Shown: positions 32,188 to 46,074 of the stretch, piece by piece
How the letters are laid out: each line of letters opens with the position of its first letter
Position numbering within the stretch: the first letter of the stretch is position 1
DNA from: a bacterium
GTDB taxonomy: Bacteria > Patescibacteriota > Microgenomatia > Woykebacterales > RBG-16-39-9b
Direction of reading: 5' to 3'
NCBI GenBank assembly: GCA_030704665.1
Contig: JAUYID010000009.1
Coordinates: 729,702 to 793,701 of the forward strand
DNA length: 64,000 nt
Made by a program: the position numbers and the translations under genes
Notes under the pieces: generated by a model
What the model saw: only the letters and a program-made list of their open reading frames with translations
Told to the model about the DNA's origin: nothing
Database searches by the model: none

Positions 32188-32871
32188 ATGCCCGAAGAAA
32201 ATCAAACCAATCCAACCACCCCGGCTGTACCAAACCCAACTCCAGCTGAACCAACGACTCAACCAAGCCCACCAGTAGTCGGGATAGATCCAGCACCGCC
32301 TACGACAACCGATCCTCTGACAACACCTGAAGTACCTGCTCCTCCGCCCCCTCCAGAACCGGCACCAAGCGCCGCTCCGACAGCGATACCAGAACCAACT
32401 CCGAGCGTAACACCGCAACCTATACCAACACCGGAACCGCCAGCACCAGTTGTGACTCCGCAGCGGCCCGCGCCAGCAGACAATCTGGCCCCAGCACCGA
32501 CTCCAAGCCCTATGCCAGCAACACCAATGGGATCAACACCAACACCTGCCCTCGATACTGCGGTCGGACCGTCTTGGATGAGACCTGAAGCAGCAAACTC
32601 AAGTCCCAACCCACCTACTCCCGCTGCAGTCTCTGCACCAGGACCAGCACCAGCTGCTCCGGCGCCCACACCAAGCGATGTGGTTCTTCCCTGGCAACAC
32701 AAAGAAGATGCCTCCGCACCAGAAGCGGACAAACCCAACTCAGTCCAAGCCAGTACCGTCCAAAAATCCGGCGGTTTTCCAATTGTAATTTTTTTGGTGG
32801 TTGTCCTTCTGATCTTAGTCGCAATTGGGGTTTTCCTTTACACCCAAAAAGCCTTACCTTTCCAGAGCTAA
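32188..32871 (+). CDS. Pro/Thr/Ala-rich low-complexity protein with C-terminal TM anchor
   Basis: 227 aa. PTPAEPT-type repeats and a C-terminal FPIVIFLVVVLLILVAIGVFLY helix. Confidence 0.5.
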   Translation: MPEENQTNPTTPAVPNPTPAEPTTQPSPPVVGIDPAPPTTTDPLTTPEVPAPPPPPEPAPSAAPTAIPEPTPSVTPQPIPTPEPPAPVVTPQRPAPADNLAPAPTPSPMPATPMGSTPTPALDTAVGPSWMRPEAANSSPNPPTPAAVSAPGPAPAAPAPTPSDVVLPWQHKEDASAPEADKPNSVQASTVQKSGGFPIVIFLVVVLLILVAIGVFLYTQKALPFQS

Positions 32872-32944: not shown

Positions 32945-34066
32945 ATGGCTGCTTCTGCCCAAAAACCTGCTGGCAATCAAGATCACCCCTTCGCTTCCAA
33001 AAGCGAGCTCGAGGGCAATTTCCTTGCGGAAAACAAGGTTCTTCTAGACAAAGTCGAGTCTTCCAAAATCCCGGCAACTCTAAAGCTAGACCTAGCTGAC
33101 AGGCTAAAACGGCTCAACCGCTCCATGCAGTTTGGTAGCTATCAAGCTGACTATGAATCAACCTCAAAATACATAAACTGGCTGCTTGCCTTACCTTGGG
33201 AAAACCGAAGTGAAGACAAGTTGGATTTAACTTTAGCGAAGCAAACTCTCGACAAAAGCCACTACGGGCTTGAAAAAATCAAGGAACGAATCATTGAGTA
33301 TTTAGCAGTTTTAAAACTACAAAGCGAAGCGGAAAACTCCGGGGTCATCAAAATTTCCCGCTCCCCGGTTCTCTGCTTTGTCGGTTTGCCAGGAACTGGG
33401 AAGACCTCCTTTGCCTTAGCGATCGCGCAAGCTTTGGGCCGAGAATTTGTTCGTATCCCGATGGGAGGAATGAGCAACGCCCTTGTTTTAAGGGGACAAC
33501 CACGGGGTTATCCTGAGGCAGAGCCGGGGATGGTCGTCAAGAGCCTTCGTCGCGCCGGAACCAAAAATCCCGTTGTCCTTCTCGATGAAATTGATTCAAC
33601 CGCCGAGGGAGCTGCTTCTGATATCATGGGTGTTCTTCTCGAGCTTCTCGATCCAGAGCAAAACTCTGCTTTTACTGATTACTATATCGACTTCCCTTTT
33701 GATCTCTCTGAGGTCCTTTTTCTTTGCTCGGCCAACAAATTGGGTAATATTACAAGCGCGGTCATGGACCGCATGGAAGTAATTTTAATGCCCCGCTACA
33801 CTGATGATGACAAAATTCATATTGCCCGCGACTATCTTTTCCCACGGGAACTCAGTGTTGTTGGTTTGAAACCGGAAACAGTCAGCTTTGATGAAGCGGT
33901 CTGGCCTCTGGTAATCAAACCCTTTGGCTATGAAATTGATGTTCGCAATATGGAAAGGACCATCAACGGAATTTTGAGAAAAGTAGCGCGAAAATATGTT
34001 GATGGCAGTCTCCAACAGGTCACAATTAATTCCTCAAACCTCAAAGATTTTCTTCCTGAGTGGTAA
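32945..34066 (+). CDS. Lon-like AAA+ ATPase lacking the C-terminal protease domain
   Basis: Lon A-domain motifs LCFVGLPGTGKTS...VVLLDEIDS...LLELLDPEQNSAFTDYYID...MDRMEVI. The ORF ends at 373 aa with no S-K dyad domain. Confidence 0.7.
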   Translation: MAASAQKPAGNQDHPFASKSELEGNFLAENKVLLDKVESSKIPATLKLDLADRLKRLNRSMQFGSYQADYESTSKYINWLLALPWENRSEDKLDLTLAKQTLDKSHYGLEKIKERIIEYLAVLKLQSEAENSGVIKISRSPVLCFVGLPGTGKTSFALAIAQALGREFVRIPMGGMSNALVLRGQPRGYPEAEPGMVVKSLRRAGTKNPVVLLDEIDSTAEGAASDIMGVLLELLDPEQNSAFTDYYIDFPFDLSEVLFLCSANKLGNITSAVMDRMEVILMPRYTDDDKIHIARDYLFPRELSVVGLKPETVSFDEAVWPLVIKPFGYEIDVRNMERTINGILRKVARKYVDGSLQQVTINSSNLKDFLPEW

Positions 34067-34139: not shown

Positions 34140-34724
34140 TTACGGACTTACTGTGTTTGTTCCACCACTATTGGCAACACCAACTGAAGTGGTCGCTCCA
34201 CCAGTCTCAACTGTACCACTACCTGTGTTCTTGTTCGCCTTGTTCTTGCCAGTTTTGGCTTTGACTTTGGCTTTGTTTTTCACCTTGAGATTGTTGCTCT
34301 GCCCTACCGTGTTAGTTTTTGTACTGCTGGCAGTTGTGGTGTTGACGGAACCTGCTCCAGTAGTCTCATTTGTGGCCGCATTGTTTACGTCACACTCGCA
34401 CGTGCAACCGTTGCTAGCTGTATTTGAACTTCCGGAATTGACGATCGAAACAGTTGCGCTGGCATCCCCAGTCGTCACCGAACCATCACCAGTGTTCTGG
34501 CTGGCGCTATTACCACCAGTGTTAGCGTTAACACTAATATCGTTGTTGATATCGACAACGTTGCTCTGCCCAATGACAGAAGAACAAACGCTTGTAGCGA
34601 TTGCAGTGTTGACTGATCCAGCACCGGTGTTTGAGTTGCTAGCGGTGTTGTCAGCCAAGGCGGGCACTACTGCTAGAGCAACTCCGGCTAAACCCAAGCC
34701 AGGAATTGTGAAAAGTCTTTTCAT
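34140..34724 (-). CDS. secreted N/T/G/S-rich repeat protein
   Basis: Signal peptide MKRLFTIPGLGLAGVALAVVPALADNTASNSNTG, with loose similarity to the SipW-cognate signal of the 40535 gene. Repeated N-T-G-x-G-S-V motifs. Confidence 0.5.
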   Translation of the reverse strand: MKRLFTIPGLGLAGVALAVVPALADNTASNSNTGAGSVNTAIATSVCSSVIGQSNVVDINNDISVNANTGGNSASQNTGDGSVTTGDASATVSIVNSGSSNTASNGCTCECDVNNAATNETTGAGSVNTTTASSTKTNTVGQSNNLKVKNKAKVKAKTGKNKANKNTGSGTVETGGATTSVGVANSGGTNTVSP

Positions 34725-34983
34725 TTATTTCTCACCTCCTTTCATCTTCTTAAACTGTAAATTGACAACAAAAAACCAACCCCCAAAAAACGGAAGTTGG
34801 TCGCATCTTTTTTTGCTTTTTGGCTGAGACAGTTTTCATGGCAGTATCCAAAAGCTTTCAGTACAAGCACTTTTGCTCTGAGCCTCCGTTGGCGGTCGGC
34901 TCACGTTTTCATTTTATTTGAAGGCAGAAAAAAGAGGCAGAAAGAACGGGTTTTATTTTAGAGAGAGGCCACTGTAGTGTCAA
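34725..34983 (-). promoter_or_regulatory. promoter (TTGACA-17-TAAAAT) plus a ~220-nt conserved 5' leader with attenuator hairpin (copy A)
   Basis: -35 at 34978-34983 and -10 at 34955-34960 (minus strand). Leader blocks AGCCGACCGCCAA, UGCCAUGA and ACCAAC-loop-GUUGGU+U6, plus 19 nt spanning RBS to start, are shared with 41075-41326. Confidence 0.45.
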
Positions 34984-35007
34984 GACAAATCAATTAGTTA
35001 TAGGGCA

Positions 35008-35868
35008 CTAAAGTGCCCTGCGAGCTTCGCTCTTAGGATTTGGGGGGGTTTGCTTTTCTTCAAATTCCTCTTTGCATTCTTTTGAACAGAAATAATAGGT
35101 CTTGATAGAAGTAACTAGTTGTGGGGTGGTCGCTGTCTTTTCCACTCTGGTGCCACAGTTTGGATCGTGCTCGAGTATTTCGATTTCTTTGAAACGTCCG
35201 TCTTCGAGCCAAAGGATGCGGTCAGCAATTTCTTTGAGCCTTTCGTCATGGCTAACCACCACGACGGTTTTGCCCATATTTTTGGCCACACGAGACAGAA
35301 GCCTCATCACCTCTTTTCCTTTTTTAGAATCAAGGTTGGCGGTTGGTTCGTCAGCAAGGATGAGCTTGGGATCGTTGGTCAGGGCTCGAGCGATAGAAAC
35401 TCTCTGCTGCTCGCCTCCAGAAAGTTTTCTGGGACGAAAGTTTCTTCTCTGAGTCAGGTCAAAAGTTTCCAAAAGACCGTTTACTTTTTGTCTAGCTAGT
35501 CTCTTTGGAACACGGGCCAGGAGCAAAGGCACAAGAACATTTTCAAAAACAGTCAGGTTTTCTAGCAAATTAAAGGATTGAAAAATAAAACCGATTTTAG
35601 CTTGACGGATTTTTGTTAGTGTCCGATCGTCAGCATCAGCAACTTCTTCTCCATCAATTTTGACTGATCCTTGGCTAGGTCTCAGCATCGCTCCAGCAAT
35701 AGTAATAAAAGTAGTTTTACCTGATCCGGAGGGGCCCATGATCAGAACAACTTCACCTGCCCAAGCTTCAAAATTGATGTCATCTACTGCTCGAACTTGG
35801 ATCGTGCCGAAGCCAAAAATTTTGGTTACATTTTTCAGTTCTAAAGTTGGTTTTTCTGGCAACCTCAT
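35008..35868 (-). CDS. ABC transporter ATP-binding protein (MacB/LolD-like) with C-terminal YHS metal-binding domain
   Basis: Walker [18 protein letters not shown] and ILADEPT. The C-terminal DPNCGTRVE...TYYFCSKECKEEF is YHS-type. Confidence 0.8.
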   Translation of the reverse strand: MRLPEKPTLELKNVTKIFGFGTIQVRAVDDINFEAWAGEVVLIMGPSGSGKTTFITIAGAMLRPSQGSVKIDGEEVADADDRTLTKIRQAKIGFIFQSFNLLENLTVFENVLVPLLLARVPKRLARQKVNGLLETFDLTQRRNFRPRKLSGGEQQRVSIARALTNDPKLILADEPTANLDSKKGKEVMRLLSRVAKNMGKTVVVVSHDERLKEIADRILWLEDGRFKEIEILEHDPNCGTRVEKTATTPQLVTSIKTYYFCSKECKEEFEEKQTPPNPKSEARRAL

Positions 35869-36968
35869 GATCGAAACACCTCAGCTGGGTCAATATGAAT
35901 TATCCGCCGTACTGGTATGTAAGAAGCAAAAATACTCATTGTATTGGCCAAAACAAAAACATTGACCAAATCTACCCCTCTCGTAGTCGTGACAAAAACA
36001 GGAACGAAGTTCGGAATAATCCAAAGTAGCAAGAAAGTTAGACCAACCCCGACGAAATAACCAATTATTCCTGAAACGAAGGACTGCTGAAAGATAATCT
36101 GATAAATTTGCAGGTTTGACCCACCAATTGCCTTCAAAACGCCAAATTCCCGCGCTTTTTCGATAGTAGCTGTGTAAATAGTTAGCCCAATCACGGCGGT
36201 TCCCACTAAAACACTGATCAGAACTAAGACTGCAATGATTGGAACAAAAACTTCGTCAATTAGGCGTCGGTTTTTATCGACGAATTCTTCCCTATCCAAA
36301 GCATCCACACCACCAATTTGGTTGATCTCGTCCCTTACTTCGTCGAGTTTGCCAGAGTCAGTCTTTACCAAGTAAAAGTTGGTAAAGCCTTCTGTGCCAA
36401 AAAGTTTAATCGCTTCTTTTTGGTCGATAAAGGAGAATTGAAAAAGAAACATGTTGGCCCCGTCAGCAATTCCCACTACTTTGAGGCTCGTCCCAAAGAT
36501 TTCGACGAATTCTCCTATTTCCAATTTTTTGTTTTTGGCTAGCACTTTATCTACCACTATTTCTCCTTCGTCCGGTACTTTCTTCCCTGAGAGCATTTTC
36601 TTTGGTCCAGAAATTGGCTTTTCTGGATCAAAACCAACGATATAGGTGTTGACGTCTTTATTTTTCAGGGAAAAACTGACTGGCTTACCCACAAATTTAT
36701 TTACTTGGGACACTCCGGGAAGTGTCTTTATTTTTAGCCCAACTGAGTCTGGAATGAGTGAAGCACTACTGGTGATATCAGCCGAGCCTGATTGAGTAAC
36801 CCAAAGGTCAGTATCAATACCCCGGATATACTCGGTTGCCTTAACACGCCACCCTTGATAAAGGGAGAGAATGATCAAAATAAGCATGACAGAAAAAGCG
36901 ACACCACCTACAGAGATTGCGAAACGGGTTTTTTCTGCAAAAAGATTTCTTAGGGCAATTGAAACCAT
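35865..36968 (-). CDS. ABC transporter permease, FtsX/MacB family
   Basis: 367 aa. TM1, then a large extracytoplasmic domain, then 3 TM helices. Overlaps the ATPase gene start. Confidence 0.75.
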   Translation of the reverse strand: MVSIALRNLFAEKTRFAISVGGVAFSVMLILIILSLYQGWRVKATEYIRGIDTDLWVTQSGSADITSSASLIPDSVGLKIKTLPGVSQVNKFVGKPVSFSLKNKDVNTYIVGFDPEKPISGPKKMLSGKKVPDEGEIVVDKVLAKNKKLEIGEFVEIFGTSLKVVGIADGANMFLFQFSFIDQKEAIKLFGTEGFTNFYLVKTDSGKLDEVRDEINQIGGVDALDREEFVDKNRRLIDEVFVPIIAVLVLISVLVGTAVIGLTIYTATIEKAREFGVLKAIGGSNLQIYQIIFQQSFVSGIIGYFVGVGLTFLLLWIIPNFVPVFVTTTRGVDLVNVFVLANTMSIFASYIPVRRIIHIDPAEVFRS

Positions 36969-37034
36969 AGTTTGAAAGGTCAGTACAAAACTTCTTTTAT
37001 TTTGAACTAAAGGAAAGGTTTCTTCAAGTAGAGA

Positions 37035-39245
37035 CTAGCTAGGGGTGCCTAAACTTAGGTTGCCTTCGTGATCAAGTTTTTTCCACTCTACCGGAGCACC
37101 CTTTAGCAAGGCCCAAAGCGCCTTAAAAAGAGAGATATAAAGAATCGGCTGATAATAAAGTCTTTGCAAGGGCATGAGAATCAAAACCCAGGCAGACTCT
37201 CTCTCAAAAGCAAAGGCAACAATACCAAGAATCAACCTCGTCAAAAGATAGAGACTGAGGTAAATAAGAACGAGCTTGGCGGAAATGAAAAAGAAAGCAA
37301 AGATAGCAAAAAGATCCATCAAGGGCGATAAAAGCATGATCGGGATCTGGACAAAAATTGTAAAGGGCAGAACGAGCCAACCCAAAAAGCCATGGCGGCG
37401 TCTAAAAATTAGGTTGCTGTGAGCCGAAAAGGTCTGAAAGACCCCAAAGGTCCAACGAAACCTTTGGCGGATGAGATCTGAGATTTTGGTCGGCGCCTCG
37501 GTATAGGAAACTGCTTCTTTGTCATAAACTACTCTGAAACCGGCCCTTAAAAGCCGTATCGTCAACTCTGCATCTTCTGTCAGGGTCCTGCCTGAATAAC
37601 CCCCGATTTTTTTCACTACACTACTTCTCCACGCTCCTAGAGCCCCTGGAACCACCAAAATCGAGTTCAGCGCGCTGTAGCCGTTTCGTTCTAGGTTCAG
37701 GTTCATGGTGTACTCAATTGCCTGCAACTTACCGAGGATAGTTTCTCGGTTGCCGACTTTTACATTGCCTGCCACAGCGCCAACTTTGGGATCAGCAAAA
37801 AATTTTACTAAGCTCCCAAGGGCATTTTTGTCGAGATGAGTATCAGCATCAAGAGCGACAAAAACACTTGATCGAACAAACCTCAAGCCATAGTTTAAAG
37901 CAGAAAATTTTCCTCCGTTTTCTTTGGCAAGAACCTTAACTCGGCTGTCTTTCTCAAACTTTTTGGCCAGCCTATTGGTATTGTCCGTGGATCCATCATC
38001 AATGATGAAAAGCTTGAATTTTTTGTAGTTCGAGGCTAGAACCGAATGGATTGTAGCAGCAATCGCTTTCTCTTCGTTGTAAGCCGGTACCAAGACGCTA
38101 ATTGAAGGTCGAAAATTTCCCTTTGCCAAAGTCTTTTTGAAACGAAGCGAGCGGTATGATTCTAAGTTCGCCAAAATGATCAGGAACAAACTGTAAGTCA
38201 GAGTAAAACCGAGGCCAATCAAAAAGACCGGGTCCAGAAGTCTCGGAGACGCCTTGAAGAATTTATACCCTACAACCAAAAGATTACTCGAAACCGACTC
38301 TCTCAATGAGACCCGCGGCATGGTAGCTTTTCCGGACAAAGCAGCCAAAGTTTGAAAACTATAGCCTTGGGATTTGTAATACTTGATGATCTCAGGAAGA
38401 GCAAGAACGGTGTTGCGCCGATCACCTCCGGCATCGTGCAAAAGCAAAACTACTGGGCCTTCAGTACTGGTAGTACTGTTTTGGACGATTTTCTTGATGT
38501 TCCTCTCCTGCCAGTCATTAGAGTCAAGAGTCGGGGTTGATACCAAGTAACCTTTGTCCAAGGCAAAAGTGGTAAGGATCAAACTATCCATCGAAATTTC
38601 GTTCTCTTGACCCCAATATGGGTTGCGAAACAATTTGGGACTAATACCTGTCGCCTGCTCGATCAAATTTTGATTGAAATCAATCTCAAAATTAACTCTA
38701 TTCAAGCGCTCCATAGGGTTTTGACCAATAGCAACGTGAGAGAAAGTGTGATTTCCCAACTCAAATCCGTTTTCAACAATTTTTTTAACCAATTCCGGAT
38801 ATTTCAAAACCTGACTCCCAACAACAAAAAATGTTGCGGAAACATTTTCTTTCTTGAGTATTTCAAGAATTTTTGGAGTGTAGTTCGGGTCTGGACCATC
38901 GTCAAATGACAAAACTACTGTTTTTTCTTTGTTCGATTTTTCCCTGTTGATTGAGTAGGTATTTTTTTCTTGGTCCGCGTTTATTTGAATAATTGTCCCA
39001 GAACCGTGGACCGAAATTTCCCCCGGTGTTTTTTTACTAATTTTGTCTATCACATCTCGGTTTGTTTCCCCTTGGATTTTCGTTAGTTTATTTCTAGCTC
39101 CTCCAAAAAACTCCCAGAGTACCAAACCGGCCACAAGAGCAAGAGCAAAACCCAAGACCAAAAAAGCCAAGCAAAAAGTCTTCCAGCGTCGACCGGACTC
39201 GTCAAGAAAGACAAATTTTTGATTTGACAATACACTTTTTGCCAT
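37035..39245 (-). CDS. bifunctional polysaccharide deacetylase (NodB/CE4) and family-2 processive glycosyltransferase (PgaC/IcaA-like)
   Basis: CE4 motifs VVLSFDDGPDP...GNHTFSHV. GT2 region LVPAYNEE...IIDDGSTDNT and Q(R)xRW (QRFRWTFG). Multiple TM helices at both ends. Confidence 0.8.
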   Translation of the reverse strand: MAKSVLSNQKFVFLDESGRRWKTFCLAFLVLGFALALVAGLVLWEFFGGARNKLTKIQGETNRDVIDKISKKTPGEISVHGSGTIIQINADQEKNTYSINREKSNKEKTVVLSFDDGPDPNYTPKILEILKKENVSATFFVVGSQVLKYPELVKKIVENGFELGNHTFSHVAIGQNPMERLNRVNFEIDFNQNLIEQATGISPKLFRNPYWGQENEISMDSLILTTFALDKGYLVSTPTLDSNDWQERNIKKIVQNSTTSTEGPVVLLLHDAGGDRRNTVLALPEIIKYYKSQGYSFQTLAALSGKATMPRVSLRESVSSNLLVVGYKFFKASPRLLDPVFLIGLGFTLTYSLFLIILANLESYRSLRFKKTLAKGNFRPSISVLVPAYNEEKAIAATIHSVLASNYKKFKLFIIDDGSTDNTNRLAKKFEKDSRVKVLAKENGGKFSALNYGLRFVRSSVFVALDADTHLDKNALGSLVKFFADPKVGAVAGNVKVGNRETILGKLQAIEYTMNLNLERNGYSALNSILVVPGALGAWRSSVVKKIGGYSGRTLTEDAELTIRLLRAGFRVVYDKEAVSYTEAPTKISDLIRQRFRWTFGVFQTFSAHSNLIFRRRHGFLGWLVLPFTIFVQIPIMLLSPLMDLFAIFAFFFISAKLVLIYLSLYLLTRLILGIVAFAFERESAWVLILMPLQRLYYQPILYISLFKALWALLKGAPVEWKKLDHEGNLSLGTPS

Positions 39246-39361
39246 AAAAACAACTATTTAACTGGTAACTAGGCAGAAATGATCTCTTCTCCGTAGGAGG
39301 CAAAGTCATTATAAACCTAATTAAACTGAAATTCTACTGGAAAAATAGTTTGATTTTCAGC

Positions 39362-40507
39362 TCAGAACACCTCACAATTTTGGTTGTTTTCTCCGTTCAA
39401 GCAGGTGTCTGTTTGTGCTCCACCATCGTTTTTATCTGAACCATTCCCTGCATCAAGAAAATCCTCCCCAGAACCTCCGGAAAGCCCGTCGCTACCTGGT
39501 CCACCAAACAATTTATCGTTGCCACTGCTGCCATTTAGACTATCGGAGCCTTCGGCACCAAACAATTCATCCGCACCAGAGCCCGCTTGCAGCGAATCAC
39601 TGTCCTGACCACCAAGGAGAATGTCCTGACCGGGCCCACCTTTCAACTTATCACCGCCGTCTCCACCAACAAGGCAATCGTTACCACCTTTACCCTCAAT
39701 AAGATCTCCCCCACCAAAACCAAAAATCAAGTCGTTGCCGGCAGTTCCGATCAGCCTATCGGAGGCCTCAGTTCCCAAAATAGGCTCTCCGGAAAACTCA
39801 ATATCACTACATTCTAAAGGAGCACTCGAAATTTCACCAGTTGAAAGTCGATTACTCTCTAAAATTACACTACTTTTGAAGAGACTAAAGGCAGGAACAG
39901 CAAAGAGCAAAAAAATAAGTACAAGAGCCGGCGCAGTTAAAACTCTGGTATTTAGTTTCTCCTTTTTCTTTTTTTTCATTCTCTTCATTTCCTCGGCAAT
40001 AACCAAAAATTCATGGAGAATAACAAAACTAGCTGGAATGATTACAAGAATAAATAGCCCGGGGAAGCTGCCAAGAAAGGCAGCCAACACTCCCAAAAGG
40101 GGAGCTGAAAAAACGACTTTTCCAAAAATATTTCTGTCTCGGATCAGTGTCGAATCTGGGCCTTGATTAGCATCTCCCTTGGTTTGATAATAAGTGATTC
40201 CATCTTTCTCAACTATCTTGTTAATTCTGTGAGTAATTAAACTCTGCGTTCCTGCCGACTGAAAGCTGACGACTTCCCCTGTTTCATAGTTTTTGTTTTT
40301 ATCACTGAAAATACTTTTTTCTGGAAAAACAACCAAAAGTGAATTTATCGGAAGGTTTGGACTCATACTTCCTGTTTTTACCACCAACAATCGAACCCAG
40401 TTTAAAGCAGAGAGGGTAAGTACCAGGGTGATGGTAAAAATAAAAACTATGAAAACTGAGTTAAAGGCTTTTACAATCATAAACTCTTTACCCGGCTGGT
40501 TCCGCAA
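39362..40507 (-). CDS. SipW-type (ER/archaeal-type) signal peptidase I fused to C-terminal RTX repeats
   Basis: Three S26 boxes: nucleophile VKTGSMSPNLPINSLLVV, His box LITHRI, and TKGDANQGPD. Three TM helices. About 10 GGxGxDxLx nonapeptides (GTAGNDLIFGFGGGDLIEGKGGNDCLVGGDGGDKL...). Confidence 0.7.
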   Translation of the reverse strand: MRNQPGKEFMIVKAFNSVFIVFIFTITLVLTLSALNWVRLLVVKTGSMSPNLPINSLLVVFPEKSIFSDKNKNYETGEVVSFQSAGTQSLITHRINKIVEKDGITYYQTKGDANQGPDSTLIRDRNIFGKVVFSAPLLGVLAAFLGSFPGLFILVIIPASFVILHEFLVIAEEMKRMKKKKKEKLNTRVLTAPALVLIFLLFAVPAFSLFKSSVILESNRLSTGEISSAPLECSDIEFSGEPILGTEASDRLIGTAGNDLIFGFGGGDLIEGKGGNDCLVGGDGGDKLKGGPGQDILLGGQDSDSLQAGSGADELFGAEGSDSLNGSSGNDKLFGGPGSDGLSGGSGEDFLDAGNGSDKNDGGAQTDTCLNGENNQNCEVF

Positions 40508-40534
40508 CCGCGGAACCAGCCTAAAATCTAGACA

Positions 40535-41074
40535 TTAAGGTACGACTTGGGTTCCAGTAAAGACTACATCATACTGAATACTCTTGTTGGAGGCACTGTT
40601 TGTCGCTGAACCACTGAGGGTTTGTTTGATGTTGCATCCGACTTCTGCGTCAGGAGCAATAGTTACAATAGTTGTCCCAGGAAAAGGGGCGTCCAAAGTC
40701 CCACTCACTACCCCGCTACCACAATCTAGTGCAACTGTTACCAGACTTGGATCAAGGGCACCCGAGTCGATAGAGGTTGCGGCAGTGATATCAAGACTAA
40801 TCGCACTGTCACTGTTGTTTTTCAGACAAAATGGTAATACCTCTTCCTGCCCAGGGGCCAAATCGTCTGAATCAATCCCCGGAGTTGAGCTTGCAAAACT
40901 ACCACACGCTGAACCAGTCCATTCCGCTATTTGCAGATCGGCATCACCAGTACTTAAGGTGTTGTTGGATAGAGTCGCAGTGTCAGTAAAAACAGCTAAA
41001 GTGATTCCCACAACCGCAGCTAGGGTTGCGGCAATGGTGAGAAAACCAAAAGCTACTCTTTTGTTTATTGCCAT
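40535..41074 (-). CDS. TasA/camelysin-like protein with SipW-cognate signal peptide
   Basis: N-terminus MAINKRVAFGFLTIAATLAAVVGITLAVFTDTATLSNNTLSTG matches the SipW-cognate signal class (A-x-F-T/N-D motif). 179 aa. Confidence 0.6.
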   Translation of the reverse strand: MAINKRVAFGFLTIAATLAAVVGITLAVFTDTATLSNNTLSTGDADLQIAEWTGSACGSFASSTPGIDSDDLAPGQEEVLPFCLKNNSDSAISLDITAATSIDSGALDPSLVTVALDCGSGVVSGTLDAPFPGTTIVTIAPDAEVGCNIKQTLSGSATNSASNKSIQYDVVFTGTQVVP

Positions 41075-41326
41075 TTATTTCTCACCTCCTCTCCCCTTCA
41101 ACCAATTTCTTTTTGAAAATTGGCATAAAAAAACCAACTGTCCTGTTTCGGCTCGTTGGTTACTATTTTTTTGTAAGCAGATATTTTGGACAGTCATGGC
41201 AGCAAACTTTTGGCAGGATTTTTAATATAGGCCTCTCCTTGGCGGTCGGCTGTACAGTTTTTACTTAACGATCAGGAAATTTTGAATGCGAAGTGAGTAT
41301 AAACTATCGCAAAGTGGAGGTGTCAA
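41075..41326 (-). promoter_or_regulatory. promoter (TTGACA-17-TTTATA) plus conserved 5' leader with attenuator hairpin (copy B)
   Basis: -35 at 41321-41326 and -10 at 41298-41303 (minus strand). GGCGGTCGGCT lies exactly 177 nt from the start codon in both copies. Confidence 0.45.
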
Positions 41327-41382
41327 CTAGGTCTATTTGTATCTTTTTGCTTGGATGAGTGCTGAGAGGATTTTGGTTTAAA

Positions 41383-42465
41383 CTAGGTGCACGTCTTACC
41401 GTGGGCAGCTGTTACAAAACCTTGGTCAGTGGAGTTTATGTAGCCATCAAGGTTCAAGTCATATCTCTTTCTGTAATAATTCCCGGAGGAGCTTTTAGTT
41501 CCCTTGTAGTCTGCTCCAATGTATTTAGCCAAAAGTAACTGATCAGCAGAGGTTACTTTTTTGTCACTATTGAAGTCTATTGGCCAAGCGCTTGATCCAC
41601 AGGCTGCTGTCGGACTGGTCCCCATATGTGACTCCGCCGCATCTCCAAAGCTATCTCCATCACTATCTTTTTTGAGAGTCCTGGCTTCTTTAGTTACTGA
41701 TGTATTGTTATTACTTGTATCGTCCACACCTACTCTAATTTGATACTTCGAACTATCCCGTAAATTCGACCACGTTTGAGTTGTCTCTAATGAAAGGGGC
41801 GAACAGATCCCCGAACTTCCTCCTCCGGTTGGACCATTAGGAGGATTGTAGTCCTCATAATACTTTGGATCAACAAGGTCAGAAGAAGAGGTACAAACAT
41901 AATAACCAGAAATCCCAACGTTATCTGTCGCCGACCATTTCCAAGTAATCGAGTTGGTAGTGATATTTGTGGCGTTTACCGTCAGAACAGGTGGGGTAGT
42001 ATCCTTTGAAAGAACCGTAAAAGCCTGGGTTGAAGCTGTGGTACATCCCCCAGTTACACAAGAAACGGTCCAATAGTAGGTGGTGCCAACTGTCAATTGG
42101 CTTGGTGGGGTTCCGTAGCTTGCACTACTCCAACCACCAAAGTTTGTCGAGTTGACTCCGCTGCTACCATACACATCCTTGTACCAAGATCCTGAGTAAA
42201 AATTCCCATTATAGGCCCGGAGATAAACTCGATATTTTGTGGTGTAGCAGTAACAGTTCCAACTAAAGGTTGGCGTAGTACTGTAGGTACTGTAGGCTGG
42301 AGTTAAGCTTGAAGGTTTTCCAGTTGCGGCCTGAGGAGTAAGTGAGCGCACACCATAAACTGCAAAAACAGTAATCGGTATTGAAATGAGAATAATGAGA
42401 GAGGCAAGAATTCCTAGGTTTATGCTTTTGAGAGTAAATTTGTGATCTTCTTGTTCATCGTTCAT
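41383..42465 (-). CDS. secreted protein with fibronectin-III-like region and C-terminal dockerin-like repeats
   Basis: N-terminal TM/signal. Dockerin-type D-x-N-x-D-G motifs (DLNLDGYINSTD; DFNSDKKVTSADQLLL). Confidence 0.55.
   Translation of the reverse strand: MNDEQEDHKFTLKSINLGILASLIILISIPITVFAVYGVRSLTPQAATGKPSSLTPAYSTYSTTPTFSWNCYCYTTKYRVYLRAYNGNFYSGSWYKDVYGSSGVNSTNFGGWSSASYGTPPSQLTVGTTYYWTVSCVTGGCTTASTQAFTVLSKDTTPPVLTVNATNITTNSITWKWSATDNVGISGYYVCTSSSDLVDPKYYEDYNPPNGPTGGGSSGICSPLSLETTQTWSNLRDSSKYQIRVGVDDTSNNNTSVTKEARTLKKDSDGDSFGDAAESHMGTSPTAACGSSAWPIDFNSDKKVTSADQLLLAKYIGADYKGTKSSSGNYYRKRYDLNLDGYINSTDQGFVTAAHGKTCT
42242..42374. repeat. 133-bp exact direct repeat, copy 1 (inside the 41383 gene)
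   Basis: Identical to 43257-43389. Flanking sequence continues at lower identity. Confidence 0.8.
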
Positions 42466-42472
42466 TTTAAAT

Positions 42473-43498
42473 TCACTGGCATCTCTGTCCTACATACTTC
42501 GCAAGAGCTTCCGAATCTTTCGAGTTCAAAACATTATCACCTGGGTAAAATTCATATCTTCTTATATTCGCTGGTGGGCTAGCTATTGCCTTGTATAACA
42601 AAAACTGGTCTGCTGAGGAAACAACTTTGTCCCCATTCAAGTCTGGTGGCCAAGCAGAAGCTCCACCACATTTTAAGTTAGGATTGGTACCCATCCAGAT
42701 TTCAACCCCGTTTAACCACCCATCACCATCACTGTCTATATCATCTGTCCTAATACCTCCTGACCTGCCACCCACATTTCCTGCTGCATCATAAGCTCTG
42801 ATATTGTAGTAATAAAGTGTATTCGGAGTAAGGTTGTTGTAGGTATATGACGTTATACCTGACCCCAAAGGAATAATCCCTGTGGAAGTCTCAGTAGTAA
42901 CTCCTAAAGAGATGTCTTGGCGAACAACTCCAACATTATCATAAGTACTCCAGTAAAAAGTAAGTGAAGTTGGCTTGGTCAGGGTTGTACCCATAGAAAC
43001 TTCAGGTGGCGAGGTGTCTTTCGTAAGGACGGTGAATGCCTGAGTTGCTGAAGTCTTACACCCACCAGTCACACAACTAACCGCCCAATAATAAGTTTTT
43101 CCAGCGGTGAGAGAAGCTGGGGCCGATTTGTAATTGTTGTTGATCCAGCCGCCAAAGATAGTAGAATTTTTTCCGCTCGTCCCAAAAACTTCTTTGTACC
43201 AAGACCCAGCATAGAAATTGCCATCTCCTTCACGAAGATAAACTCTATATTTGGTCGTGTAGCAGTAACAGTTCCAACTAAAGGTTGGCGTAGTACTGTA
43301 GGTACTGTAGGCTGGAGTTAAGCTTGAAGGTTTTCCAGTTGCGGCCTGAGGAGTAAGTGAGCGCACACCATAAACTGCAAAAACAGTAACGGGAATGGCG
43401 GCAAAGATAACCAAAACACCAACCAAAGCCAGCTTCGTTGATCGAGTCTGGTGCTCAAATCTTTCCAACAAACGGTTGATTGTTTTGGCAGGATTCAT
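42473..43498 (-). CDS. paralog of the 41383 gene (FN3-like plus dockerin-like)
   Basis: N-terminal approx 150 aa are near-identical to the neighbour (VFAVYGVRSLTPQAATGKPSSLTPAYSTYSTTPTFSWNCYCYTTKY). DLNGDKVVSSADQFLL dockerin motif. Confidence 0.55.
   Translation of the reverse strand: MNPAKTINRLLERFEHQTRSTKLALVGVLVIFAAIPVTVFAVYGVRSLTPQAATGKPSSLTPAYSTYSTTPTFSWNCYCYTTKYRVYLREGDGNFYAGSWYKEVFGTSGKNSTIFGGWINNNYKSAPASLTAGKTYYWAVSCVTGGCKTSATQAFTVLTKDTSPPEVSMGTTLTKPTSLTFYWSTYDNVGVVRQDISLGVTTETSTGIIPLGSGITSYTYNNLTPNTLYYYNIRAYDAAGNVGGRSGGIRTDDIDSDGDGWLNGVEIWMGTNPNLKCGGASAWPPDLNGDKVVSSADQFLLYKAIASPPANIRRYEFYPGDNVLNSKDSEALAKYVGQRCQ
43257..43389. repeat. 133-bp exact direct repeat, copy 2 (inside the 42473 gene)
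   Basis: Identical to 42242-42374. Confidence 0.8.
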
Positions 43499-43547: not shown

Positions 43548-44315
43548 CTAGCTACCAAAACCAATAACTTCAATGATTTTGGGGTGCAGTTTTGGGCCCG
43601 CGGCGACAAACTCAGTTGAATCAATAGTCCAGATTTTCCCGGCCAGATCAGTAACGAGACCACCAGCCTCGATCACTGCCAGGGAAGTGGCGGCATAGTC
43701 CCATTTTGAGGCTCCAGTGGAAATAAAAGCTTCAGTCTCGCCAATGGCAACCAGAGCTCCTTGGACGACTTGACTGCCGAAAATTCGAGCGGTGCGGGTT
43801 TTGGTGATGAAACGCGAAAAAATTTCGGCTGTTTTTTTCCTGACTTCCTCGCCCGGACCATAGCCAAACGAGAGTAGACTGTACTCAAGTTCGTCTTTTT
43901 CCGACACATGTATTCTTTTTCCGTTCAAAAAAGTTCCTTTTCCTTTTTCGGCAGTAATCATTTTGTCCCAAGCTGGTAAATTTATAACCGCAAGCAGAGG
44001 CTCTTTGTTTTTGTAGAGAGCAATCGAGGTGGCAAACATTGGGATGTGTGAATGGTAGTTGGTCGTCCCGTCGATTGGGTCCACTATCCAAAGATATTCA
44101 GAATCTCCAACCCCAATCTGGCCTTCTTCTTCCCCGAGAATTTTGTGGTTCGGATAGTCGGCCAGAATAATCTCGCGAATCATCCCTTCGGCGTTTTTGT
44201 CCGCAACGGTCACGAGCGTGTGGTCGGCTTTTCTTTCTTCTTTGAGAACTTGGTCATAATAACCAAGAATGATTTTTTCTGCTTCTTTCGCTGCTTTAAT
44301 GGCGGTTTGTAGCAT
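43548..44315 (-). CDS. inositol monophosphatase family protein (IMPase/FBPase-like)
   Basis: WIVDPIDGTTNY and GxxKWDxAA motifs. Confidence 0.8.
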   Translation of the reverse strand: MLQTAIKAAKEAEKIILGYYDQVLKEERKADHTLVTVADKNAEGMIREIILADYPNHKILGEEEGQIGVGDSEYLWIVDPIDGTTNYHSHIPMFATSIALYKNKEPLLAVINLPAWDKMITAEKGKGTFLNGKRIHVSEKDELEYSLLSFGYGPGEEVRKKTAEIFSRFITKTRTARIFGSQVVQGALVAIGETEAFISTGASKWDYAATSLAVIEAGGLVTDLAGKIWTIDSTEFVAAGPKLHPKIIEVIGFGS

Positions 44316-46074
44316 GTAAAACCCTTTCTTGAAGATTCAGCATTTCTTCTTCTATCCTTTTTGCTAAAGAGTCGACTTGGTTTTTTGTTTGACTCAAATC
44401 TCCCGCCACTTTTTGTTGGTGCTGTATATAATATTTGATCTTTGGCTCAGTTCCGGAAGGCCTAGCAGTGACCTTTGTTTTTTCATCTTCAGAGAGAATA
44501 AAGGTAATTTGGTCTCCAGTAGCTCCACAAACATAGTTTTCCGCCCTTCTTTGTTCTGCGGGTAAACGGTCAATGGTTTTCAAAACCTTTAGTCCAGCGA
44601 TCTCAAGTGGGGGTTTTGTTCGCAAGGAAAGCATAATTTTGGCTCTATTTTCAAAACCAACCCGACCCTGCATCTCAACCATATTTAGGATGTTTTTGTA
44701 GTAGCTGTATTTTTGATAAATTTCATCTAAGTAATTAACTAGAGTTTTTCCCTGATCTTTAAGAAAACTAGTAAGTTCAGCTAAAGTAAGAGCGGCAATT
44801 GCTGCATCTTTGTCGCGCACAAAACTAGAGCGCAGATAACCAAGGCTTTCTTCGGCGGCGAAAACAAAATCATTCTTATCTTCAAGTTTTCCAATCACTT
44901 CACCGATAAATTTGAAGCCAACGAGTAGATCATCAATGACTTTCACTCCGTAGCCTGCAGCGATATCGGAAATAAGGTTGGTGGTTTCGTAAGTTTCCAC
45001 GACTAACGAGTCTCTCGAGAGTTTATTTTGCAGTTTTAGCTGTTCCAAAACAAAGGACGCCAGGACTACCCCTACTTGATCACCATTGAGAAATTGGACT
45101 TTGTTTGAGTCGTGGGTAACCTTTGAGGCCACCCCAATTCGATCGGCATCAGGGTCGGAATTAACAACGAGATCGGCAGCGATCTTCTCTCCCAGCGCTA
45201 CCGCTAGACTCATCACTTGTGGGTATTCTGGGTCAACTAAACCGTTCGGAGCAGTTGGGAATTTTTCATCGGGGCTGGCTTGTTCAGGTACTACTACAAC
45301 TTCGAAACCTTCTGCTTTCAAAACAGGTAAGACGTTATTTACGCCTGCTCCATGCATTGGGCTAAAAACGATTTTAGCACTACGAGTTTTGGTGAGTGAA
45401 AGTCCCCGAATCGCTGTCAAATACGGTTCGTCTACTTCATTTCCTACCATTTGGATCAGACCTTTTTCGAGCGCTGAAGAAAAATCTGTCGTTTTGATGC
45501 TATCGACTTTTTTGACCTGTTCCATAAATTTTAAATCTAACGGAGGGACTACCTGACCGCCATCACTCCAGTAGAATTTAAAGCCATTATCGGCTCTAGG
45601 GTTGTGGGAAGCAGTGATCTGAACTCCAGCGGCAGTTTTCAAAAAACGAACCGCAAAAGAAACCTCTGGGGTGGAGCGGAGAGAATTGAAAAGATAAGCT
45701 TTAATTCCGTTAGCTGCAAAAACACTACAACAAAGTTGGGCAAAAGGTAGCGACATTTTCCGGGCTTCATAACCAACTATAACTCCTTTTGCTTTTAGCT
45801 CCTCACCAAAATCTTTGATAAAGTTCGCCAATCCTTGGGCCGCTTCTCCAATAGTTTGAAGGTTAATTCGATTTGGTCCAGAACCCACTTTGCCCCGTAT
45901 CCCGCCTGTACCAATTTGGATATGAGTGTAAAAGGCGTCTTCAAGTTCTTCAAAGTCTTTGTTGGAAATTAATTTGTTTATTTCCTCCCGAAAGTCCGAA
46001 TACTGGGGTTCGTTTAACCATTTTTCTAGGTTGTTGAATGCCTCAGGAGAAAGTCTGTTTTTTAGTTCATCCAT
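44296..46074 (-). CDS. phosphoglucomutase/phosphomannomutase (alpha-D-phosphohexomutase)
   Basis: Active-site GVQITASHNP and metal loop NSDPDADR. 592 aa. Confidence 0.8.
   Translation of the reverse strand: MDELKNRLSPEAFNNLEKWLNEPQYSDFREEINKLISNKDFEELEDAFYTHIQIGTGGIRGKVGSGPNRINLQTIGEAAQGLANFIKDFGEELKAKGVIVGYEARKMSLPFAQLCCSVFAANGIKAYLFNSLRSTPEVSFAVRFLKTAAGVQITASHNPRADNGFKFYWSDGGQVVPPLDLKFMEQVKKVDSIKTTDFSSALEKGLIQMVGNEVDEPYLTAIRGLSLTKTRSAKIVFSPMHGAGVNNVLPVLKAEGFEVVVVPEQASPDEKFPTAPNGLVDPEYPQVMSLAVALGEKIAADLVVNSDPDADRIGVASKVTHDSNKVQFLNGDQVGVVLASFVLEQLKLQNKLSRDSLVVETYETTNLISDIAAGYGVKVIDDLLVGFKFIGEVIGKLEDKNDFVFAAEESLGYLRSSFVRDKDAAIAALTLAELTSFLKDQGKTLVNYLDEIYQKYSYYKNILNMVEMQGRVGFENRAKIMLSLRTKPPLEIAGLKVLKTIDRLPAEQRRAENYVCGATGDQITFILSEDEKTKVTARPSGTEPKIKYYIQHQQKVAGDLSQTKNQVDSLAKRIEEEMLNLQERVLHATNRH

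Follow-up and report, generated by a model that had tools for sequence, protein, structure and literature searches.

The operons tapA-sipW-tasA of Bacillus subtilis and sipW-tasA-calY of Bacillus cereus encode an archaeal/ER (endoplasmic reticulum)-type signal peptidase beside a subunit of the TasA/camelysin type. In published structures of TasA filaments, the region of strand insertion was reported to be similar to that of Fim/Pap pilins, and the accessory protein TapA was reported to donate its N-terminus to TasA (PMC10151520). Other TasA-superfamily loci of archaea and bacteria (those of the AbpA, AbpX, Tafi, and Saci_0406 threads) cluster a major donor-strand subunit with its dedicated signal peptidase I and with minor, tip, or anchor proteins. 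The bacterial loci have sortase/LPXTG anchors nearby. Occasional fusions of signal peptidase I with an accessory module, DUF5305, are reported for such loci (bioRxiv 10.64898/2026.01.04.697558). Patescibacteria are listed among the phyla with homologues of PF12389, the Peptidase_M73 family of Pfam (PMC9245690). MatB from Streptomyces, with a CE4 domain outside and a GT2 domain inside the cell, is described as standing in for both IcaA and IcaB (PMC5972031). Here we describe a minus-strand locus (positions 34140–43498) in which relatives of these components stand side by side. It lies in a 64,000-nucleotide stretch of contig JAUYID010000009.1 (the window) from a bacterium of the Woykebacterales (Patescibacteriota).

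Our analysis makes it fairly probable that this locus is a composite surface cluster of a small-genome, Patescibacteria-type bacterium, with a donor-strand fibre system of the TasA superfamily as its conserved core and a MatB-like synthase beside it. The open reading frames (ORFs) listed between 32 and 46 kb include eight minus-strand genes in this locus, not nine as first counted. We number them g1 to g8 from position 34140 upward. The initial annotation had likened the locus to eps plus tapA-sipW-tasA, and the likeness holds for the adjacency of SipW and a TasA-like protein. For eps, an operon of 15 genes, the likeness is loose, with one synthase in its place. No ORF at the locus corresponds to a separate TapA (YqxM) gene; a TapA-like strand motif occurs inside g5 instead.

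The TasA-like subunit and its fused signal peptidase

The putative major fibre subunit is g6 (40535–41074), a protein of the TasA/camelysin superfamily. With 179 residues it is shorter than Bacillus TasA (261 residues) and borderline by Pfam, scoring 21.0 bits against PF12389 (gathering threshold 22.5). The model for SipW-dependent-type signal peptides, TIGR04088, gives 17.8 bits (cut-off 19). A search of 5.8 billion proteins yielded no more than 13 homologues. PF12389 matches six of the 13 family members at E ≤ 0.01 (best E 2e-5), and one close relative, P0122, carries a precomputed hit to this family (P0xxx designates homologous proteins, L0xx related loci). The family alignment begins with a signal peptide, followed by A-x-F-[TS]-D-T-A-T-L-x-x-N-T-L-x-T-G, PGQ, F-x-L-K-N, and a C-terminal Y-D-V-V-F-T-G-T-Q. 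We take these motifs to be the counterparts of AAFND...ASGTLDL, LKPGD, FQFENNG, and QFSFEATQ in TasA. The N-terminal motif A-V-F-T-D-T-A-T-L-x-N-N-T-L-S-T-G is kept across the family, in line with the pattern A-x-F-[TS]-D...N-x-[LF]-x-[ST]-G at the subunit N-terminus in the Bacillus operons. A SipW-type cleavage of the signal peptide is predicted near TLA|VFTDTATL.

An AF2 model of the g6 monomer (pLDDT 82) is an all-beta sandwich. Its best fold matches in the PDB are the self-complemented donor-strand pilins FimA/FimG (E ~1e-5, though with a TM-score no higher than ~0.4); the listed matches also include the Sulfolobus 0406 thread. A beta-sandwich nearest to donor-strand pilins fits the published TasA filament structures. 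We relate g6 to TasA/camelysin at the superfamily level and not as a formal family member. A role as zinc protease was rejected because the sequence contains no histidine, which excludes zinc binding by an HExxH motif.

Proteins identical to g5 and g6 are deposited at NCBI (MDP2671682.1 and MDP2671683.1) on a 938,369-bp contig of a metagenome-assembled genome, and g1 has named homologues in Candidatus Woykebacteria and the "Patescibacteria group". These records make the reduced genome suggested initially a plausible assumption.

The adjacent gene g5 (39362–40507) codes for 381 residues from a TTG start; the NCBI entry starts from the ATG at 40480 and has 372 residues. The protein scores 72.7 bits against the archaeal-type signal peptidase I model TIGR02228 (cut-off 51.85) and matches human SEC11A/C in the PDB (E ~5e-6). 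The catalytic Ser and His motifs, GSMSP and THRI, can be read in the translation. With 84.6 bits against a cut-off of 190 for NF046067, g5 is not an equivalog of Bacillus SipW. Hydropathy and motifs (381-residue numbering) place a first transmembrane (TM) helix at 17–35, followed by the catalytic region, TM2 at 152–170, a K-rich loop, and TM3 at 189–207 (nt 39943–39887). TM2 is the usual C-terminal helix of SipW, and TM3 is an additional helix that resembles a signal peptide. After TM3 come a motif resembling the N-terminal strand of TasA (LFKSSVILESNRLSTG, nt 39883–39836) and a Cys-flanked RTX beta-roll (residues 227–381, nt 39829–39365) with an RTX repeat score of 72 bits.

This arrangement recurs. 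All five extended SipW proteins that were first examined show the same order of K-rich loop, TM helix, and TasA-like 14-mer, and in each of them the 14-mer resembles the N-terminus of the TasA-like protein from the same genome (in L009, for example, LLSDTAALTDNQF vs VLSDTATLDNNTF). To prevent circularity, a position-specific scoring matrix was trained on 13 TasA-like N-termini only and then applied to all 14-mers from the six-frame ORFs of the nonredundant loci (94,403 positions). Right after the true TasA-like proteins, ranks 10–13 went to the extension motifs of L009, L002, L006, and L008.

A split and a fused version of the same protein pair speak most directly to the nature of these extensions. 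In L022, a SipW of 190 residues and a secreted pre-protein of 212 residues are encoded by separate genes (L022 6790–7997), whereas in L024 both parts form one protein of 383 residues (L024 6850–8001). The L022 SipW aligns to residues 30–182 of the L024 protein (40% identity, E 2e-40), and the 212-residue protein aligns to residues 184–383 (44% identity, E 5.5e-46). At the level of sequence, this pair is direct proof that SipW extensions can be fused pre-proteins. The RTX module of g5 also occurs joined to TasA-like cores in proteins without SipW (P0003–P0018 and L022). Proteins of this type were exposed by a first homology search with full-length g5, which was dominated by RTX proteins. Based on the split/fused pair, the motif copies, and the RTX–TasA fusions, we read the C-terminal half of g5 as most likely a TapA-like or minor-subunit analogue.

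The RTX module invites comparison with type I secretion, which we rejected: the module sits behind a signal-like TM helix, and the cell presumably is monoderm. RTX repeats are present, but the locus encodes neither a membrane-fusion protein nor TolC, and the layout points to Sec-dependent export.

Like the Bacillus operons, the locus provides an accessory part with a TasA-like strand, the role described for TapA (PMC10151520). Unlike in Bacillus, this strand and the RTX roll are fused to SipW through an extra TM helix. The fusions with DUF5305 provide a precedent for the principle, not for this particular fusion of SipW with a substrate: the module in g5 resembles a pre-protein, with a signal helix, a donor-strand motif, and then RTX (in relatives NTG repeats, described below, or other modules), and the peptidase has three TM helices. 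In contrast to the AbpA, AbpX, Tafi, and Saci_0406 systems, a dependence on Ca2+ would stem from the RTX roll and not from sites within the subunit. No paper turned up in a literature text search that combined SipW with "candidate phyla radiation".

A mechanism can be sketched from these features. As the major subunit, g6 would be exported by Sec, and the adjacent SipW-type peptidase would cut its signal peptide at about TLA|VF. This cleavage would free the N-terminal strand VFTDTATLSNNTLSTG for insertion into the beta-sandwich of the next subunit. In g5, the peptidase would be joined through the K-rich cytoplasmic loop and the signal-peptide-like third helix to a second pre-protein, which opens with a mimic of the TasA N-terminal strand and then passes into the Ca2+-binding RTX roll. 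The fused part could take the role of TapA or a minor subunit in two ways: after self-cleavage it would serve as initiator or tip, and if it stays tethered to the membrane it would anchor the fibre.

Several observations run counter to this interpretation. The scores of g6 fall narrowly short of both the M73 and the TIGR04088 cut-offs. B. subtilis TasA is missing from the top 50 fold matches of the g6 model, and a profile search of the PDB with the g6 family returned weak matches to Cna collagen adhesins only and did not retrieve TasA. The motif in g5 ranks 60th in the matrix scan, the weakest of the five, and its RTX cargo differs from the cargo in the L022/L024 fusion. Self-cleavage of g5 and fibre formation are steps that we infer. 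The borderline scores and the failure to retrieve TasA would suit another explanation, by which g5 is a general housekeeping signal peptidase decorated with an RTX surface module and g6 an ordinary camelysin-like secreted or wall protein. One signal peptidase may be all that a small genome retains, and a second one was not found within the window. This explanation does not account for the tight adjacency of SipW and TasA-like genes that is kept in divergent lineages, for the copies of the TasA-type N-terminal motif in SipW extensions, or for the split/fused pair, in which the extensions appear as substrates. The lack of histidines for metal binding in g6 and a fold nearest to donor-strand pilins also argue against it, and we judge it quite improbable.

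Synteny and the CE4-GT2 synthase

Related loci were found through homologues of g5, g6, and g1 and annotated with local HMMs (hidden Markov models). They represent seven lineages: L002, L006, L008, L009, L020, L022, and L024. Several of the contigs are short or cut, so absences there are soft; flanks of 8–10 kb are available for L006, L020, L022, and L024. A metagenome scan added only L010–L012, which belong to the same lineage as L006 or are short contigs.

Six independent lineages (the window, L002, L006, L008, L009, and L024) have a TasA-like gene next to SipW, and in L022 the two belong to one array. What surrounds them varies. In L006, a TasA-like gene is followed by a SipW that carries a fused NTG unit and lamin-tail domain; CE4-GT2, the MacB pair, and FN3/dockerin genes are absent within 10 kb. 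L008 contains two TasA-like genes, SipW-RTX, and a g1-like gene. L009 has a TasA-like gene, a SipW with an NTG-like tail, and a g1-like gene, while its opposite strand encodes a sortase and three NTG-unit proteins. L020 has an RTX protein, a g1-like gene, and a sortase cluster. L024 encodes a g1-like protein (45% identical to g1), a TasA-like protein, SipW fused to the homologue of the 212-residue protein of L022, and a TasA-like-RTX protein, without CE4-GT2. In L002, the order is a GT2-GH26 synthase, a membrane protein, a TasA-like protein, SipW-RTX, and a g1-like protein. The synthase (L002 214–2811) is a processive GT2 of 865 residues (QQMRW motif) with a C-terminal GH26 fusion, directly upstream of the TasA-like/SipW-RTX module. 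L022 is an array of a TasA-like gene, the stand-alone SipW, the 212-residue pre-protein with a TasA-like N-terminus, a fusion of a TasA-like core with RTX, and CE4-GT2. The recurrent core consists of a TasA-like protein, SipW, an accessory protein with a TasA-like strand and/or RTX, and an NTG protein.

The synthase of the window is g4 (37035–39245), a bifunctional membrane protein of 736 residues whose gene comes directly downstream of g5. The initial annotation had proposed a fusion of CE4 and GT2 in a single polypeptide, which we could confirm: Polysacc_deac_1 (PF01522, CE4) matches residues 103–305 with 105 bits (cut-off 23.1), and GT2 models match from residue 380 to about 600 with 111–115 bits. 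The sequences FDDG, HTFSH, RNPYW, DSNDW, and LLLHD represent the five NodB-type CE4 motifs, including the Asp-His-His metal triad. The GT2 motifs DDGSTD, DAD, TED, and QRFRW together with C-terminal TM helices (621–679) identify a processive membrane GT2. According to hydropathy, a TM helix (25–43) precedes an extracytoplasmic CE4 domain, and a second one (340–358) leads into the cytoplasmic GT2 domain. This order of CE4, TM helix, and GT2 in one polypeptide is that of MatB, with which g4 was compared by description. As in MatB (matAB) and the Ica/Pga systems, an extracellular CE4 is joined through the membrane to an intracellular processive GT2, and PgaC/IcaA is the best family. Unlike in these systems, no MatA, IcaD, or IcaC/PgaD partner was recognised, and the neighbours of g4 are fibre genes instead of mat or ica genes.

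We surmise that the GT2 domain would polymerise a beta-glycan containing N-acetylglucosamine (GlcNAc) at the cytoplasmic side and thread it out of the cell, where the outward-facing CE4 would partly de-N-acetylate the polymer to a sticky cationic product. PgaC_IcaA (TIGR03937) is the best NCBIfam model for g4, with 184.2 bits against an equivalog cut-off of 422.3. This score is so far under the cut-off that the sequence does not fix the identity of the polymer, which counts against our interpretation. Instead of an exopolysaccharide of the poly-N-acetylglucosamine (PNAG) type, the protein could produce a polymer of the cell wall or a secondary wall, similar to chitin or hyaluronan, or it could modify peptidoglycan-linked glycans. 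Such a role would agree with the matches of NodC and cellulose synthase models to g4 and with its nearest relatives in the PDB, which are deacetylases of peptidoglycan GlcNAc or chitin for the CE4 domain and synthases of hyaluronan or cellulose for the GT2 domain. Nevertheless, PgaC_IcaA is still the top-scoring family, and MatB, an enzyme that synthesises PNAG, has the same topology of an outer CE4 and an inner GT2 domain (PMC5972031). Given also that the CE4-GT2 gene lies beside matrix-fibre genes in two genomes, we regard the wall polymer as unlikely.

Profile scans of the genome contigs of GTDB representatives returned only distant GT2 proteins in Spirochaetota, Sphingobacteriaceae, and Clostridia for g4, and no relative for the TasA-like alignment. 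Since both scans came back empty in this sense, the lineage seems to be missing from the GTDB representatives.

A link between fibre and synthase comes from L022. Its CE4-GT2 protein is 55% identical to g4 over 738 residues and is encoded directly after the TasA-like-RTX gene, even though the SipW proteins of the window and L022 share only 32% identity. With CE4-GT2 linked in two divergent genomes and another GT2 in a third, the gene order lends real support to a coupling of fibre and synthase. On the other hand, CE4-GT2 is not next to the module in L006, L008, L009, L020, and L024 (several of these contigs are short), and none of the seven related lineages has the ABC-YHS/MacB pair or the FN3/dockerin paralogues beside its TasA/SipW module. 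The full block recurs in none of them (0/7), which refutes the block conservation expected from the initial annotation, as far as the whole block is concerned. Its notion of an integrated matrix locus is tenable for fibre and synthase, but goes too far where it includes the ABC transporter and the FN3/dockerin genes.

These absences raise the possibility that only the TasA-like and SipW genes, perhaps with NTG, form a unit, and that CE4-GT2, the ABC pair, and the FN3/dockerin genes are envelope neighbours by chance, without any integrated matrix locus. Strand and composition would agree with such a scenario. The minus-strand run continues without break from 34140 to at least 59593, which is at least 16 kb past the locus, and the GC content of the locus (0.42–0.45) is the same as that of its surroundings. 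With flat GC and a long co-oriented run, neither co-orientation nor the term "island" is evidence in itself, and a genomic island or horizontal transfer was rejected for want of any discontinuity in GC or strand. What remains of the island proposed initially is a functional cluster: according to hydropathy, seven of its eight proteins are secreted or bound to the membrane. Chance would not readily explain this bias toward the cell surface, nor why a 55%-identical synthase follows the L022 array despite the divergence of SipW, nor why another processive GT2 precedes the module in L002. We consider a chance neighbourhood possible but doubtful, and favour the composite cluster of fibre core and synthase.

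Shared leaders and the NTG repeat family

The two larger intergenic gaps of the locus precede g6 and g1. They contain no credible additional gene, and the short ORFs in them fall inside regions that we interpret as 5' leaders (41075–41326 for g6 and 34725–34983 for g1, promoters included, both on the minus strand). Each region contains sigma-70-like hexamers (TTGACA 41326–41321 and TATACT 41301–41296 for g6; TTGACA 34983–34978 and TAAAAT 34960–34955 for g1), a shared box, and, just before the ribosome-binding site (RBS), a terminator-like element with a T-run (a stem at 41160–41127 for g6, a hairpin at 34802–34764 for g1). The leaders are ~220 nt long, and the 20-nt box lies at exactly −175 from the ATG in both (AGCCGACCGCCAAGGAGAGGC at 41251–41231 for g6; AGCCGACCGCCAACGGAGGC at 34901–34882 for g1). 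Its common form is AGCCGACCGCCAA[CG]G(A)GAGGC, also written GCCGACCGCMAASGGAGGC. The RBS with its start context is identical in both leaders, as is the presence of an attenuator-like stem and T-run. In two other Patescibacteria genomes, represented by L016/L017 and L018, the first NTG gene is preceded by a near-identical box (L016 4655–4675, L018 4602–4622), and the promoter hexamers and T-run of g6 are kept upstream of TasA-like genes in L012, L008, and L002. The pentamer YTGCC appears 21 times in nine such leaders, compared to 2.0 ± 1.4 in shuffled sequences, a count made post hoc.

This conservation suggests that g1 and g6 are co-regulated through the shared leader, possibly as an attenuator-type regulatory element. 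While the SinR-type regulatory context of the Bacillus operons is absent, the locus has a long leader with a terminator-like hairpin instead. Comparison of both leaders with Rfam gave nothing near threshold (Phe_leader 25.5 vs 55, lysM-TM7 14.4 vs 61.5), and folding of the whole leaders was not clearly better than that of shuffled sequences (z −2.3 for g1 and −0.2 for g6). Because of these weak z values, the only RNA structures that we propose are the terminator-like stem and a small hairpin that spans the shared box. Both leaders also contain a short ORF (34750–34838 and 41075–41197, minus strand) that runs from the conserved CTGCCATGA through the terminator-like hairpin. M(K)TV... and LVF-x-CQF are common to both encoded peptides. 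Since these ORFs lack a visible Shine-Dalgarno sequence, their similarity may simply reflect conservation of the DNA.

A further promoter-like site precedes g8 (43535–43506, minus strand; TTGACA-18-CATAAT, 11/12 match). It ends 7 nt before the ATG with no visible Shine-Dalgarno sequence, and the g8 mRNA may be leaderless. A terminator-like site follows g1 (34108–34087, minus strand). With at least three promoter-like starts, before g8, g6, and g1, a single operon is unlikely, which speaks against a unified locus and would suit neighbours assembled by chance. The gaps from g6 to g2, by contrast, are short (27, 116, 66, and −4 nt) and contain no convincing terminator, with one weak terminator-like site within g5. 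A transcript g6-g5-g4-g3-g2 is therefore possible.

The protein encoded by g1 (34140–34724, 194 residues) is secreted and rich in N, T, and G. Its signal peptide is followed by two repeat units of ~80 residues (NTG units) joined by a Cys-rich linker, with the strongly conserved pattern ISGNGAxSxN ... Q.N ... ANTGGNxAxxNTGxGxVxTGxA ... N. No Pfam or NCBIfam model matches g1. A profile of the NTG unit detected 3,068 proteins among 1.84 billion representatives at E ≤ 1e-3, and 1,104 at E ≤ 1e-30. These proteins carry two to eight units, most of them four; none of the 10 members tested has a Pfam domain, and the profile finds no relative in the PDB. In some members the C-terminus consists of LPxTG, a TM helix, and a basic tail, and these are encoded next to a sortase, which marks the NTG unit as a surface-protein module. 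NTG-unit proteins lie at L009 3852–8577, L016 4756–8825, and L020 9780–14591. From these sequence features we conclude that NTG proteins are a large, unannotated family of surface proteins in Patescibacteria.

As a recurrent extra partner, the NTG protein has no counterpart in the Bacillus operons. NTG genes adjoin the TasA/SipW module in L002, L008, L009, L020, and L024, and in L006 the unit is fused into SipW. The association is frequent and not obligatory. In L016–L018, three tandem NTG genes occur with no SipW within 8 kb, an arrangement that weakens the case for g1 as a part of the fibre system. So does the AlphaFold model of g1, which is all-beta with a poor pLDDT of 64 and has no significant structural match. 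A Foldseek match of g1 to the amyloid protein FapC (E 0.19, probability 0.05) was discounted as evidence. In our model g1 would be a recurrent partner, probably co-regulated with g6, and may serve as a coat, an adhesin, or a second polymer.

Envelope neighbours and implications

The remaining genes of the locus encode an ABC pair and two paralogues. The permease g3 (35865–36968, 367 residues) is of the MacB type, with 54.6 bits for MacB_PCD (PF12704) and 54.4 bits for FtsX (PF02687). Its gene overlaps the start of g2 by 4 nt, and the two are translationally coupled. The ATPase g2 (35008–35868, 286 residues) scores 116.5 bits for ABC_tran (PF00005) and barely passes for YHS (30.5 vs cut-off 30.3). 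DevA, LolD, and FtsE are its best NCBIfam models, each under its own cut-off, and the equivalog cut-offs for DevA, DevC, LolD, and MacB are all missed by the pair. The similarity to MacB/DevCA/FtsEX thus consists of the MacB periplasmic core domain and the four-TM FtsX fold of g3 and a LolD/DevA/FtsE-like ATPase. In contrast to these systems, the locus has no membrane-fusion or outer-membrane partner, and g2 ends in a YHS/TRASH-type Cys motif. This motif (35008–35150, C-x-...-C-x3-C) is an unusual appendage of metal-binding type for a MacB/LolD-like ATPase.

Genes g7 (41383–42465, 360 residues) and g8 (42473–43498, 341 residues) had been described as FN3/dockerin-like paralogues. They are paralogous, with 48% protein identity, and Dockerin_1 passes for g7 (37.1 bits vs 22.9). 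The FN3 assignments stay below threshold (23 vs 25 for fn3 in g7), as do fn3 and TSP3_bac in g8 (17.2 vs 25 for TSP3), which has no dockerin match. The g7 protein has one N-terminal TM helix as membrane anchor, an FN3-like part, and the dockerin; g8 is N-terminally anchored as well, with two FN3-like domains and a TSP3/dockerin-like, Ca-binding C-terminus. A search confined to the genes of the locus revealed no cohesin. Over 253 nt (42129–42381 in g7 and 43144–43396 in g8), the two genes are 86% identical in DNA; this stretch encodes a Cys-containing FN3-like domain, and the remainder is much more diverged. Such a pattern suggests a recent duplication or gene conversion of the N-terminal part. 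We consider g3-g2 and g8-g7 as lineage-specific envelope neighbours, with at most a hypothetical link to the fibre.

Overall, the domain list of the initial annotation is confirmed in substance, with TasA and FN3 assigned at the superfamily level only. Most domains passed their cut-offs (CE4, GT2, ABC, YHS, MacB/FtsX, RTX, archaeal/ER-type signal peptidase, and the dockerin of g7), and TasA/M73, FN3, and TSP3 fell just under.

The flanks of the locus contain four further genes. Directly upstream of g8 (43548–46074, minus strand), an inositol-monophosphatase-family gene and a phosphoglucomutase/phosphomannomutase gene of 592 codons overlap by 20 nt and might supply sugar-phosphate precursors. 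Just downstream, on the plus strand, 32945–34066 encodes a Lon-like AAA+ protein of 373 residues with the Lon lid and without protease domain, and 32188–32871 a Pro-rich, C-terminally anchored protein of 227 residues without family match.

Taken together, three elements are new: the joining of SipW to a substrate with an RTX cargo, the family of NTG partners, and the leader common to g1 and g6. Each component belongs to a known class, and for this reason the gain is incremental and not conceptual. As a tentative generalisation, TasA-type fibres of Patescibacteria may be primed or anchored by their own SipW carrying interchangeable cargo (RTX, NTG with lamin-tail, or others). The TasA-mimicking strand of the pre-protein that SipW bears in cis would then dock into the first or the last subunit of the fibre. 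By the same tentative proposal, the NTG repeat would define an undescribed surface or fibre class (~3,000 representatives) that is co-regulated with TasA-like genes through the leader and its YTGCC repeats and attenuator hairpin.

The peptidase–substrate fusions may serve as a "Rosetta stone" for the clients of SipW-type peptidases and for the question as to how fibres start or are tethered without a TapA gene. The NTG family and the shared leader are unannotated, recur in many such genomes, and could enter annotation resources. Cells of the Patescibacteria, or candidate phyla radiation, are thought to live attached to hosts. To our knowledge, few of their attachment structures are known beyond type IV pili. 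The cluster described here is a testable candidate for such attachment, with a TasA-superfamily fibre that would bring its own anchor or initiator and a putative GlcNAc-polymer synthase in one protein.

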